From assembly GCF_002854065.1 (NCBI RefSeq), contig NZ_CP024153.1: 64,000 bases of DNA; one strand, 5' to 3'. This stretch comes from Escherichia coli (GTDB lineage Bacteria > Pseudomonadota > Gammaproteobacteria > Enterobacterales > Enterobacteriaceae). This document shows positions 12,001-18,000 of this stretch, piece by piece. The position numbers were made by a program. Position 1 is the stretch's first letter, and the number at the start of each line of letters is the position of its first letter.

Positions 12001-15000
12001 AAGGAAGTGTATGAAAAATGTCTGGTATAATAAAGATATCATCTTGAAAATCGAGTGTTGCTCTGTGGATAACTTGCAGGGTTTAATAAGTATCTTTACT
12101 CAAAAGTTGCAATCAATAATTTATTGAAAAAGATTGAAAGGTGGTGGTAAATAATGTTACAATGTGGGAGTATCAGTTTAAATTCTTCGTGAAATAGTGT
12201 TCTTTTAAGCTAATAAAAAATGCACGTGGAATTTAGGTCAAAGAAAAGTAAAGAAAAATTTATTTATGGAGGTAAAAAAGGATGAGTCAAGTTGTTGATT
12301 TTTTAAATGAAGCAAAAACTTTTTATTTTGCAACCGTTGAAGGAGACCAGCCAAGGGTCAGACCGTTTAATGCAGCCATGGAGAGGAATGGCAAGGTCTA
12401 TCTTGGTACAACCAATCAGAAAAAAGTTTATCAGCAGTTATTGGCAAATTCAAAGGTGGAAGTCTCAGGTATGGCAAAAGGAAAATGGATTCGGCTCACC
12501 GGCGAAGCCGTAATTGATGATACCGTGGAAGCAAGGGAAGCAATGCTTGAAGCAAATCCGCCTTTGAGAGATTGGTATAGCGCTGATGATGGGAAATTCA
12601 CCGTATTTTATTTGAAAAACATGCAGGCAGTTTTATATTCCTTTACAGGAGATCCGGAGATATTAGATAATTAATCAAAACATGCAGCCCAGTGGTAGAA
12701 TGAACTGACCCCCATAAGTTAGACCAAAAATCTAACTTATGGGAGGTCATTTTTTATGGCAAAATACAGTTATGAATTTAAGTTACAAGTTGTTCAAGCA
12801 TATTTAGATTTTTATTTTGTCCGTTTTGTCTAGCTTACCGAAAGCCAGACTCAGCAAGAATAAAATTTTTATTGTCTTTCGGTTTTCTAGTGTAACGGAC
12901 AAAACCACTCAAAATAAAAAAGATACAAGAGAGGTCTCTCGTATCTTTTATTCAGCAATCGCGCCCGATTGCTGAACAGATTAATAATAGATTTTAGCTT
13001 TTTATTTGTTGAAAAAAGCTAATCAAATTGTTGTCGGGATCAATTACTGCAAAGTCTCGTTCATCCCACCACTGATCTTTTAATGATGTATTGGGGTGCA
13101 AAATGCCCAAAGGCTTAATATGTTGATATAATTCATCAATTCCCTCTACTTCAATGCGGCAACTAGCAGTACCAGCAATAAACGACTCCGCACCTGTACA
13201 AACCGGTGAATCATTACTACGAGAGCGCCAGCCTTCATCACTTGCCTCCCATAGATGAATCCGAACCTCATTACACATTAGAACTGCGAATCCATCTTCA
13301 TGGTGAACCAAAGTGAAACCTAGTTTATCGCAATAAAAACCTATACTCTTTTTAATATCCCCGACTGGCAATGCCGGGATAGACTATTATTCTCCCCGGA
13401 GCCACTACGCTGACCCGGTTGATTTCAGAGGTAAGGGAAAAGGCGACGTTGCGCCTGTGGAACAAACGGCACTGTTGCAAAGTTAGCGATGAGGCAGCCT
13501 TTTGTCTTATTCAAAGGCCTTACATTTCAAAAACTCTGCTTACCAGGCGCATTTCGCCCAGGGGATCACCATAATAAAATGCTGAGGCCTGGCCTTTGCG
13601 TAGTGCACGCATCACCTCAATACCTTTGATGGTGGCGTAAGCCGTCTTCATGGATTTAAATCCCAGCGTGGCGTTGATTATCCGTTTCAGTTTGCCATGA
13701 TCGCATTCAATCACGTTGTTCCGGTACTTAATCTGTCGGTGTTCAACGTCAGACGGGCACCGGCCTTCGCGTTTTGAGCAGAGCAAGCGCGCGACCATAG
13801 GCGGGCGCTTTATCCGTGTTGATGAATCGTGGGAATCTGCCACTTCTTCACGTTGTTGAGGATTTTACCCAGAAACCGGTATGCAGCTTTGCTGTTACGA
13901 CGGGAGGAGAGATAAAAATCGACAGTGCGGCCCCGGCTGTCGACGGCCCGGTACAGATACGCCCAGCGGCCATTGACCTTCACGTAGGTTTCATCCATGT
14001 GCCACGGGCAAAGATCGGAAGGGTTACGCCAGTACCAGCGCAGCCGTTTTTCCATTTCAGGCGCATAACGCTGAACCCAGCGGTAAATCGTGGAGTGATC
14101 GACATTCACTCCGCGTTCAGCCAGCATCTCCTGCAGCTCACGGTAACTGATGCCGTATTTGCAGTACCAGCGTACGGCCCACAGAATGATGTCACGCTGA
14201 AAATGCCGGCCTTTGAATGGGTTCATGTGCAGCTCCATCAGCAAAAGGGGATGATAAGTTTATCACCACCGACTATTTGCAACAGTGCCTAAAAATCGAC
14301 CATACAGAGAGGGAAACCACCGGAGTGGTGGGAAAAGCAGAAAGGCTCACGTGGCATAAGGCGTGGACAATGGTATCGACTGGTTTTTCAATTTCCTATA
14401 CGTGAACTATTGAAGTAATCAATCAAATTTTATAGGCTGATAGCCAAGTAACAACCACCAATGATATGCCAGGTAAAATCAGGGGACGTAAAATGAGTAC
14501 TCTTGATGTTCAGAAGCTCAAGGATGATGCCGTCGAATGGGCCTTAACTCATGGTGTTGCTTTCAAGGAATCGTCGTATTCCGCAGTGCATACCCCGTTT
14601 ACCCTGACACCAACACCTATCAGCCGTAAATCCTATCAGTACTTAAAGAATGCAACAGGAATACTCAGCAAATTAATCTATTCAGTTTCTGAGGATCATG
14701 ATTTTTTGTACTCTGCGATTTATCCCATCAAGGCCGGGAATGCCTTCTTTTCAGCCCTCCTGAACATGCATCAACAAATCCATTCATCATCAAGGCATGC
14801 TCCTCGATTACCATTACTCATTATGCGTAGCGACTTTATGGATGATAATCGTGATGGGTTCAGGCTTATAGAGTTCAATGGTATAGCTGCAGGAATGGGG
14901 CCGTTTGGTCAGCGGATACATGATCTGCATCACTATCTACAACGGCAATATCCCGCTGTCTTTTCTGATTTATCGAATCAGGCAACAGGGGCGCTTGTCG

Positions 15001-18000
15001 ACAATCAAGCGATCGAAGGGTTATCAGCAGCGATTTGTCAGGCAACTTGCAGAATTAAGCAGGAGTTCGGAGACCCCGGCCCTGCCAGGTTCCTGATGAT
15101 TGTGCAGGAGAATGAAAATAATGTGTTTGATCAACACTTGCTTGAGCTCGCCCTCCAGCAAAAAGGAATCGAAACGCATCGCAGGACTTTTCGTGAACTG
15201 CATAATCAATTGAGTACAGGCGCCGACAACAGGCTCATTCTCGAGGGTGTAGGCCCACTTGATACCGTCTACTTACGTGCCGGATATCAGTATTCTGATT
15301 ATGAAGCATTCAATATCGATGAGCAGGAGTGTTGTCAGGCGCTGATGGCGACCCGAGTATTCATTGAGCAGCACCGGGTTGCAGTGAACGCCACAGTTGG
15401 CCAGCAACTGGCGACCAGCAAGCGAGTACAAATGCTGCTCTCGCAATTGGGTTACGACGAGTTTGTCGCATTTGGATTAACACTGCAGGAAGCTAAAATA
15501 GCAAAAACGATACTGGGTGAGATGTTACCCATCAGCCCGGATAGTATCAACCTTGCAAAAGAGTCTCCTTCGGAAACCTGGGTTCTCAAAAATCAGGGTG
15601 AAGGCGGGGGGCATTGTCTGTTTGGTGCGGATATCCTGACAAAACTGACGGAACTCACTCCACAACAATATCAGTCCTGGTCGCTGATGCGCCGTTTACA
15701 CCCTCAGCCCCGAGCTATGCCCACCTTGATTGTGCGTAAAGGGGAGTTGCATAAGGTGAATGATTTGATAAGCGAACTTGGAATGTTCTCCGTGCAGACA
15801 GATAACAATCCCTCCAGTGCTGAGCACAGTTTTGCTGGATATCTAATTCGTAGCAAATCAGCTGAATCGACAGAGGGAGGGGTCCATAGTGGACAAGGTG
15901 TTTTAGACTCGCTGGTATACAGCGATTAGTCCCTTTCAAGGGGGCTGAAATCTGGTTATATGAAAGCATGCGGTAAGTGGTGTTTTAGCCCCAGTGGAGA
16001 TGATGCTGTTTCTAGACTGAGTCGTAGTAAGCTAATAATAGTATTATAAATGAAGCCATGAGGGTATTTACAGGGCATATCTTATTAAGGGAACAACAGC
16101 AAAAACTGCTGCTATAAGAGGCTGCACCCAAAGTTCTTCAAGGTTCACATCATCGCTGCTGGGTCGATGCTGTTTCAGTTACGGGTCAATTTTCAATACC
16201 ATTAGCTGTTCCTGTGACTACGGTCATTACGCGCTGTCGACATCAATTTGTACAGCAAACAGTCTTAGCGTGGGATATTTAATGAGATGGTCACTCCCTC
16301 CTTCCCGGTACTATGCTGAGGATAGGCTTTCATTCGGAGAACTATCATGGAAAACATTGCGCTCATTGGTATCGATCTGGGTAAAAACTCTTTCCATATT
16401 CATTGCCAAGATCGTCGCGGCAAGGCTGTTTACCGTAAAAAATTTACACGGCCAAAGTTAATCGAATTTTTGGCGACATGCCCCGCTACAACCATCGCAA
16501 TGGAAGCCTGTGGTGGCTCTCACTTTATGGCACGCAAGTTGGAAGAGTTGGGGCATTTTCCTAAGCTGATATCACCACAATTTGTCCGTCCATTCGTTAA
16601 AAGTAACAAAAACGACTTTGTCGACGCCGAAGCTATTTGTGAAGCTGCATCGCGTCCGTCTATGCGTTTTGTACAGCCCAGAACTGAATCTCAGCAGGCA
16701 ATGCGTGCGCTGCATCGTGTCCGTGAATCCCTGGTTCAGGATAAGGTAAAAACAACCAATCAGATGCATGCTTTTCTGCTGGAATTTGGCATCAGCGTTC
16801 CACGAGGAGCTGCCGTTATTAGCCGACTGAGTACCCTTCTTGAGGACAATAGTTTGCCTCTATACCTCAGCCAGTTATTGCTGAAATTACAACAGCATTA
16901 TCACTATCTTGTTGAGCAGATTAAAGATTTGGAATCCCAGTTGAAACGAAAGTTGGACGAAGATGAGATTGGACAGCGCTTGCTGAGCATTCCCTGCGTC
17001 GGAACACTGACAGCGAGTACTATTTCAACTGAGATTGGCGACGGGAAGCAGTACGCCAGCAGTCGTGACTTTGCGGCGGCAACAGGGCTAGTGCCTCGAC
17101 AGTACAGCACGGGAGGTCGGACGACATTGCTGGGAATTAGTAAGCGAGGTAACAAAAAGATCCGAACTTTGTTGGTTCAATGTGCCAGGGTATTCATACA
17201 AAAACTGGAACACCAGTCTGGCAAATTGGCCGATTGGGTCAGGGATCTACTGTGTAGGAAAAGCAACTTTGTCGTCACTTGTGCTCTGGCAAACAAGCTG
17301 GCCAGAATAGCCTGGGCCCTAACGGCACGACAGCAAACTTATGTAGCATAACGGCAGAAATACACCGGTTTAAAGAATCACTGATCTGGTTTTGCGAATA
17401 CTGATATTGATGATACTAACGGCCCACCGGCCTGTTGAGGAACCTGTAAAACGGAAAGGCTCATTGAAGCCGTATATTTTCTGGAGGTTCATCAGGCGCG
17501 GAACTCATCGAGGCGCGGGAATAAAATCCCATTCAGACGCCGGATAGATTCAAGCAAGCCAATTTATCGTCAAAATCGGTGTTGCAAAAACGGGAGTGAC
17601 CATAGATTCCGTTTTCCAAGCGGACCCCGTGCTGTGTGGAAATCCGCCCACCTTGCCGGGCGCCGGTGCTGTGTGGAAATTCGCCCATCTTCATGACAAA
17701 AATTTGTCAAATGACAGGCTCATGTGTGCTGATTTATGTCAGACGGGATTTTGCTTATCAATTATTGAGAACAGAAATTTTCCTGAATCATCAATACTAT
17801 ACTTAGCAAGTAAAGGTGTTTTCTCATTTATCTGCTTGAGAGCAGGATCAAGGAAAGATCGTTTCAACTCTGCCAAGTTCTTCTGTTGGGATTCCGGCAA
17901 AAGGAAACGGTCATTTAACCAAGCATGAGTAGTAACCCATAAGCCTGAAGATTTGAATTGAGCAAGACTTTCATAAAGGCGGATCGTCCGTGGATTTCGA

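Follow-up and report, generated by a model that had tools for sequence, protein, structure and literature searches.

How does a glutathione synthetase (GS) gene of the eukaryotic type come to lie in a resistance region of Escherichia coli, and what might it do there? The question is raised by a 64,000-nucleotide stretch of contig NZ_CP024153.1 (RefSeq assembly GCF_002854065.1), hereafter the window, where an uninterrupted plus-strand open reading frame (ORF) at 14466-15929 encodes such a protein of 487 amino acids. Our analysis makes it likely that the gene encodes a GS-family ligase from an arsenic-resistance (ars) island, that it was stranded by the insertion sequences IS1294 and IS26, and that it now travels as a passenger of IS26. 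The headline is not new, since the gene is already annotated in RefSeq and has been mentioned in print as gshB. What the analysis adds is its placement at the right end of what appears to be a non-autonomous Tn21-type ars element, the loss of its regulator, and its membership of an uncharacterized clade with an altered specificity loop.

The ORF carries all five motifs quoted in an earlier, sequence-only reading of the window, which had assigned it to the eukaryotic GS type rather than to bacterial GshB, and both the ORF and the assignment stand. Pfam domain GSH_synth_ATP (PF03917) covers nearly the whole length (residues 15-484, E = 1e-60) with GSH_synthase (PF03199, E = 4e-19) nested within it, so that both domains of the eukaryotic enzymes are present; no GshB-type domain (GSH-S_N/GSH-S_ATP, PF02955/PF02951) was found by the Pfam search of the protein. 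The nearest solved structures by sequence are the GS enzymes of potato, human and yeast and the homoglutathione synthetase of soybean (E = 1e-41 to 1e-36, full length). A family profile improves the match to solved GS structures to E = 1e-61, with identity to eukaryotic GS of only 27-29%. An AlphaFold model of the protein (pLDDT 88, pTM 0.89) was placed by Foldseek closest to human GS (2HGS, TM 0.86) and potato GS (5OES, TM 0.84), the folds ranking below GS being glutathionylspermidine-type ligases (TM about 0.5). E. coli GshB was not matched by Pfam, by the PDB sequence search or among the top 50 Foldseek hits. Translation probably starts at the ATG at 14493, giving a product of 478 amino acids, because homologues are 475-479 amino acids long and a Shine-Dalgarno sequence, AGGGGA, lies 6 nt before this codon. 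The identical RefSeq protein, WP_000105383.1, named "glutathione synthase", is annotated from the same ATG.

The gene and its immediate surroundings are organized as follows (window positions):

13468-14289, minus strand: IS26, left boundary of the unit; transposase frame broken by two 1-bp homopolymer insertions.
14290-14403, plus strand: terminal (oriIS-end) fragment of IS1294, 114 bp, cut by IS26; 100% identical to window 21142-21255 (reverse).
14404-14492, plus strand: 89 bp of retained intergenic DNA between the divergent regulator and GS genes, beginning with GAAC abutting the IS1294 end.
14493-15929, plus strand: eukaryotic-type GS-like ATP-grasp ligase, 478 amino acids; longest ORF from 14466 (487 amino acids).
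15930-16263, no strand: non-coding subterminal region of the transposon end, 334 bases.
16264-16280, minus strand: inner 17 nt of a 38-bp Tn21-family terminal inverted repeat (IR), CTTAGCGTGGGATATTT.
16281-17607, plus strand: IS4321, 1327 bp, inserted in the IR; transposase gene at 16347-17351.
17608-17628, minus strand: outer 21 nt of the 38-bp IR, TCCGTTTTCCAAGCGGACCCC, with its GGGG tip at 17628.
17629-18420, minus strand: 37-bp IncN iterons (about two copies left) and 5′-truncated IncN repA; 99.5% identical to R46 31778-32575.
18421-19240, minus strand: IS26, right boundary, in the same orientation as the left copy.

The sequence-only reading had set the gene between an IS1294-like end fragment and the inner end of a 38-bp Tn21-family IR, spanning 14405-16280, and the junctions agree with this to within one base. 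On the left, the sequence shared with the 114-bp fragment (21142-21255) is the terminus of a complete IS91-family element in the window, next to its transposase gene (21313-22512), and the same piece has been described as the oriIS end of IS1294 (PMC6288184, PMC6052338). The tetranucleotide GAAC follows directly after it. On the right, positions 16264-16280 and 17608-17628 join to give GGGGTCCGCTTGGAAAACGGAAAATATCCCACGCTAAG, a 38-bp repeat that shares 31 of its 38 positions with the Tn21 IR; the two pieces are contiguous in plasmids without IS4321. Tn21-family IRs are known targets of IS4321. Directly oriented IS26 copies bracket the whole segment (13468-14289 and 18421-19240), their transposase genes lying on the minus strand, as in a pseudo-compound transposon or translocatable unit. 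It should be noted that the left copy has single-base insertions near 13772 and 13834 compared to other IS26 copies, which split its transposase ORF and could mean either a dead IS26 or homopolymer errors in a long-read assembly.

Is the repeat a real transposon end? The DNA outside its GGGG tip differs in each of four replicons. In the window it consists of IncN iterons; E. coli S30 plasmid B (L011) has the strA upstream region there, an Enterobacter cloacae plasmid (L016) a DUF2767 gene, and a plasmid of Klebsiella sp. w6 (L017) unrelated DNA. The repeat, of the form GGGG...ACGCTAAG, is intact in the last three and split by IS4321 in the window. In L016 it has an inverted partner 11.8 kb away (2762-2799 vs. 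14534-14571, 37/38 positions matching), and the two ends share about 40 further bp of subterminal similarity. The last 40 bp or so of the non-coding region in the window resemble, inverted, the stretch just inside the left end of the L016 element; the window keeps the right end only, its partner being gone. The four outside sequences, the inverted partner and the seating of IS4321 within the repeat together indicate a genuine transposon end, in agreement with the earlier description of the gene as cargo of a mobile element in a resistance and metal-efflux region (qnrS, oqxAB, sil and others lie nearby).

The genes between the two L016 repeats are arsenic genes only, in two sets (arsR-arsH-sigma70-arsD-arsA-GNAT, and arsC-arsB-arsA-arsD-arsR-arsC-phosphatase-arsC-HTH, where HTH is a helix-turn-helix gene), and the element is best described, from its gene content and termini, as a non-autonomous, Tn21-type, IR-bounded ars element. 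Two DUF2767-family ORFs flank it (L016 2396-2626 and 14497-14748); the right one reads across the 38-bp IR into the element and is thus a chimeric annotation made by the insertion.

The allele of the window is found in one piece with such an island in L017, which carries the ars genes, an ArsR/SmtB-type HTH gene, this GS allele (DNA 99.84% identical across window 14404-16280) and the intact IR. At the right end of the ars element the GS gene is divergent from the ArsR-type regulator gene. The regulator, of the ArsR/SmtB type, ends in EECCSGHPEKC (a CC-x6-C motif), which resembles the three C-terminal cysteines of As(III)-sensing ArsR proteins of the Acidithiobacillus type. It is present next to GS in L017, L002 and L003 and, as its 5′ part, in L011. 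Two IncI-gamma/K1 plasmids, L011 and L023, combine this 5′ part with an intact GS gene and scattered ars genes, L011 being an intermediate form with an intact IR and neither IS1294 nor IS4321. In the window, the regulator and every ars gene have been lost. A further lineage (L013-L015) lacks the GS gene; another Tn3-family transposon has entered the GS promoter region of the ars element there, 48 bp upstream of the start codon. This transposon (L013 20198-27430 and L015 14198-21430; IR GGGGTTCGAGGTCCAATGATGTAAAAAACCACGCTAAG) carries tnpA, tnpR and a pair of SIR2-family and DUF87 genes that looks like defense cargo.

More distant relatives point in the same direction. No protein 80-100% identical was found among 5.8 billion proteins, the 90% cluster consisting of enterobacterial plasmid copies only. 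At 80% identity, the homologues on the Salmonella Paratyphi B chromosome and Citrobacter plasmids have the same divergent HTH gene and an LMWP-type ArsC, in an island with arsRDAB and a molybdopterin oxidoreductase cluster. The Aeromonas tecta gene (78%) follows arsC by 22 bp and closes an arsR-arsD-arsA-phosphatase-GAPDH-arsJ-acr3-arsC string; the Yersinia gene (77%) lies between a chromate transporter gene and genes for ArsP and thioredoxin; that of Shewanella putrefaciens (65%) lies between ArsP and arsB-arsC genes; and Microbulbifer (56%) has an HTH_20-GS-ArsP arrangement. The closer clade members are thus accessory genes of arsenic-resistance islands in independent lineages. The literature searched for eukaryotic-type GS in bacteria, or for GS with ars clusters, yielded no functional study and nothing relevant save one figure legend, in which "glutathione synthetase" is among the color-coded genes of a comparison of ars/arr modules including Shewanella and Aeromonas.

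Two of these neighborhoods also contain apparent defense genes. On the Salmonella Paratyphi B chromosome, a CBASS-like set (L004 9595-14522; SAVED effector, SMODS cyclase, Cap2-type E1/E2 and JAB) is directly downstream of the 80% GS homologue, at the edge of the ars island; in Aeromonas tecta, a Hachiman-like pair of HamA and a DEAD/ResIII helicase (L007 13143-16540) is a few kb downstream of the ars-GS operon.

An alternative origin, in the IncN backbone, was considered and rejected, because the archetypal IncN plasmid R46 has none of the GS DNA next to repA. The "IncN1 segment" label given to this DNA in print is therefore a simplification, with the gene forming the end of an ars transposon. 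As to the IncN portion itself, repA (17739-18467) is 5′-truncated at 18420 by IS26, and the ORF runs on into IS26 to a TTG start; RefSeq records list it as an intact "replication initiation protein", and typing tools score such IncHI2 plasmids as IncN-positive for this reason. The two iterons left at 17629-17700 escaped Tandem Repeats Finder. Elsewhere in the window, 29.4 tandem copies of a 37-bp unit (GGGCGGATTTCCACACGGCACCGGCGCCCGGCAAGGT), essentially the IncN iteron, lie at 53882-54967 in the IncHI2 backbone near rep and par genes; this array could serve as homology for recombination with IncN fragments like the one beside the GS gene.

What remains of the regulatory DNA may still be functional. 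The 89 bp upstream of the gene hold a conserved block, GAACTATTGAAGTAATCAA(T/C)CAAATTTTATAG, followed by the Shine-Dalgarno sequence, and within the block TTGAAG and TATAGG, separated by 15 nt, are candidate -35 and -10 elements. In alignment, the block GAACTATTGAAGTAATCAAYCAAATTTTATAG is identical between alleles whose coding DNA is only 80% identical, which suggests that it comprises promoter and operator; it is on this conservation that we call TTGAAG-15-TATAGG a candidate promoter. An inverted-repeat search of the upstream region for an operator returned an AT-rich palindrome only. Since the promoter/operator region is kept and the repressor lost, constitutive expression of the window copy is plausible.

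We propose the following history. The gene would have served natively as the last one before the right-hand 38-bp IR of a transposase-less, Tn21-family-type ars element, divergent from its ArsR/SmtB-type regulator. This element would first have become joined to the IncN iteron array; IS1294 would then have inserted at GAAC, 12 bp upstream of the regulator ATG; IS26 would next have deleted the regulator, all the ars genes and all but 114 bp of IS1294; and IS4321 would have entered the IR later. The resulting 4.1-kb remnant between direct IS26 copies would now be spreading with them across IncHI2, IncF, IncI, IncR and IncY plasmids. The likeliest reaction of the product is the ATP-dependent addition of glycine, or a close analogue, to gamma-Glu-Cys, which in its native setting may have provided more thiol for arsenate reduction dependent on glutaredoxin and glutathione (GSH) and for buffering of As(III).

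The catalytic part of this proposal was examined in an alignment of 119 bacterial clade members with the human, potato, yeast and soybean sequences (residues in human numbering). The ATP, Mg and catalytic residues E144, N146, K305, K364, E368, GGG369-371, E425 and K452 are invariant in the query and the 119 clade members, as are R125 and R450. The side chains that bind the glutamate of gamma-Glu-Cys (E214, N216, Q220, R267 and Y270) are likewise invariant across the 119. In the clade, Ala and Gly take the place of two serines whose backbone atoms contact the substrate cysteine, and such small residues are tolerated at these positions (PMC5919673). On this residue pattern, the protein very probably works as a gamma-Glu-Cys:amino-acid ligase, and probably as a GS, an activity that we infer from the conservation of its pockets.

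Several observations weigh against this account. With respect to the enzyme, the score against NCBIfam TIGR01986 (glut_syn_euk) is below the equivalog cut-off (236.5 vs. 329.8 bits). In the A-loop, the Ala-Ala pair linked to glycine specificity is replaced by His-Ser (A462H and A463S) in all 119 clade members; in the G-loop, or lid loop, P365N and R367G are equally invariant, N372H is found in 116 of the 119 and N373C in 117. With respect to the arsenic connection, the homologues of Ferrimonas, Endozoicomonas and Grimontia (53-58% identity) have no ars neighbors, and in L017, the sole plasmid found with both a complete ars element and this allele, the GS gene has a 1-bp insertion. With respect to the transposon, no tnpA or tnpR is annotated in the 11.8-kb L016 element, nor is there space for them at its ends (the PLSDB table leaves out pseudogenes), and no 5-bp target duplication flanks it (TTACT vs. 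AAGAT). Finally, a consensus sigma-70 scan found no acceptable promoter upstream of 14493, and the wide spread of the intact ORF could also reflect selection. The sequence-only reading had missed the sub-cut-off score and the altered glycine pair, as well as the arsenic element with the lost partners of the gene (the ArsR-type regulator and ArsC) and the prior annotation as gshB.

The last of these points leads to the possibility that the gene is selected cargo, which we regard as unlikely. A de-repressed GS would raise glutathione and with it tolerance of metals, arsenicals, electrophiles or oxidants, or would supply GSH for FosA3 on the same plasmid lineages. The distribution is certainly broad: some 300 PLSDB plasmids, from hosts such as Escherichia, Salmonella, Klebsiella and Enterobacter, have the segment at 99% identity or better, their replicon types including IncHI2, IncF, IncI, IncR and IncY, with the ORF intact and identical, and the gene is present in 173 of 5426 complete E. 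coli genomes (3.2%), nearly always plasmid-borne. Two independently truncated forms both keep the whole ORF, 89-250 bp of upstream DNA and the IR, and the promoter/operator block has been kept while the repressor was lost. Three papers name the gene gshB, within a 3-kb "delta-repA-iterons-gshB-delta-IS1294" piece often near fosA3 or rmtB modules (PMC6288184, PMC6052338, PMC6739495), and the segment adjoins fosA3 modules in F33:A-:B- and related plasmids (PMC6052338, PMC6739495). The window itself also contains sil and oqxAB.

Against selection, recent hitch-hiking with IS26 would explain just as well why all copies are identical, and about one copy in eight is truncated (some 44 of 352 matching plasmids). 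In enterobacteria, moreover, GshA rather than GS is generally seen as the limiting step of glutathione synthesis. No fosA was found in the window or in the flanks of four other carriers examined, and the literature searched reports no phenotype for the gene. Only about 20 plasmids have a regulator fragment in place of the IS1294 remnant, so it is the IS26-delta-IS1294 form that spread. We found no sign that the gene itself is selected, and it is most likely a passenger of the IS26-bounded unit, not a selected resistance gene.

A related and similarly improbable scenario would make the whole clade ArsR-controlled arsenic-defense enzymes, in which the His-Ser/His-Cys signature would serve a gamma-Glu-Cys-X product or a response to arsenite, and of which the IS26-spread copy would alter thiol chemistry. 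If true, the de-repressed copy in livestock-associated multidrug-resistance plasmids would change, for instance, tolerance of arsenical feed additives or metals, or the efficiency of FosA3.

We give slightly less credence still to the idea that the clade is not GS at all, adding another amino acid to gamma-Glu-Cys, or using another acceptor, to make an arsenic-related thiol peptide, or else responding to arsenite through the lid-loop His-Cys pair. The altered A-loop and G-loop residues (A462H, A463S, N372H, N373C, R367G and P365N), together with the sub-cut-off score, do mean that the product could differ from GSH. The A-loop pair is Leu-Pro (Leu487-Pro488) in soybean homoglutathione synthetase, and mutations there shift S. 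pombe GSH2 toward beta-Ala or Ser; in addition, the GS-like effectors of nematodes show that the GS fold can lose its canonical activity (PMC5919673). Those effectors, however, change all six residues of the glutamate pocket, whereas the glutamate and cysteine pockets for gamma-Glu-Cys are fully canonical in our clade. The nematode clade 1 and 2 enzymes, which lack Ala-Ala, still favor glycine (PMC5919673), which shows that glycine use does not strictly require the pair. The non-ars contexts in Ferrimonas and Endozoicomonas would also fit a housekeeping GS.

That the gene is silent junk, its promoter severed by IS1294 just 89 bp upstream of the start, is the least probable of these alternatives: the consensus scan found no suitable upstream site, but the conserved block with its candidate promoter lies wholly downstream of the IS1294 junction and the ORF is undecayed in hundreds of copies.

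An ars-island ligase carried along by IS26 thus remains our preferred explanation, and the wider region is rich in other acquired DNA. The surroundings in the window include qnrS, catB3-blaOXA-1-aac(6′)-Ib-cr cassettes, aadA, bleO, aph(3′)-II, the oqxAB RND genes and the sil operon. To the left of the unit, positions 12000-13400 are of low GC content (34-37%) and bounded by IS26; a 130-amino acid ORF there (12282-12674) resembles flavin proteins of the pyridoxamine-phosphate-oxidase type, and 12994-13371 on the minus strand is a gene for a bleO-type bleomycin-binding protein. To the right, 22830-25083 holds what is left of Tn5, an IS50-type transposase gene and then aph(3′)-IIa; it is cut by IS26 right after aph, and the Tn5 ble and str genes are missing.

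The gene is among the commonest non-resistance passengers of IS26-rich multidrug-resistance regions in E. coli and Salmonella of animal and human origin. Its identity as the tail of an ars transposon would correct the "IncN1 segment" label and explain why IS4321/IS5075 has landed there repeatedly, and the gene can serve as a marker for tracing DNA exchange among IncN, IncF33 and IncHI2 resistance regions. If it is active and de-repressed, glutathione-dependent phenotypes could shift modestly; if inert, it offers a clean example of hitch-hiking. A clade of eukaryotic-type GS in ars islands, with an invariant, altered specificity loop, may be of more use to arsenic biology than to the study of antibiotic resistance.

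How, then, does the locus compare with known systems? The protein resembles the eukaryotic GS enzymes (human 2HGS, potato 5OES, yeast 1M0T) in its full-length collinearity, its fold (TM 0.84-0.86) and its catalytic and gamma-Glu-Cys pocket residues; it differs in its 27-29% identity, its score below the TIGR01986 cut-off and its His-Ser and His-Cys in place of Ala-Ala and Asn-Asn, respectively, and its gene is bacterial, mobile and ars-linked. Bacterial GshB of the E. coli type catalyzes the same class of reaction with a distantly related ATP-grasp chemistry; it differs from the window protein to the point of giving no Pfam, PDB-sequence or top-50 Foldseek match. TnAtcArs of Acidithiobacillus caldus is a Tn21-family transposon in which 38-bp Tn21-type IRs bound arsenic-resistance genes, whereas the L016/L017 element is without tnpA/tnpR, has another gene set and carries a GS-like gene at one end. 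Soybean homoglutathione synthetase (3KAJ/3KAL) is a GS paralogue with a change of specificity at the same two A-loop positions, which are His-Ser in the window protein, a combination for which we found no characterized example. The GS-like effectors of Globodera pallida (5OET/5OEU; PMC5919673) likewise have a GS fold diverged from the canonical enzyme and are matched by the clade profile; they have lost the canonical glutamate pocket, while the clade retains it. Lastly, pHN6DS2, pHNFP460-1 and related plasmids carry the same DNA as their "IncN1 segment", down to the 114-bp IS1294 remnant, in copies with or without IS4321/IS5075. The papers describing it place gshB in the IncN fragment, whereas R46 sets the gene outside the IncN backbone and L011, L016 and L017 make it the end of an ars transposon.

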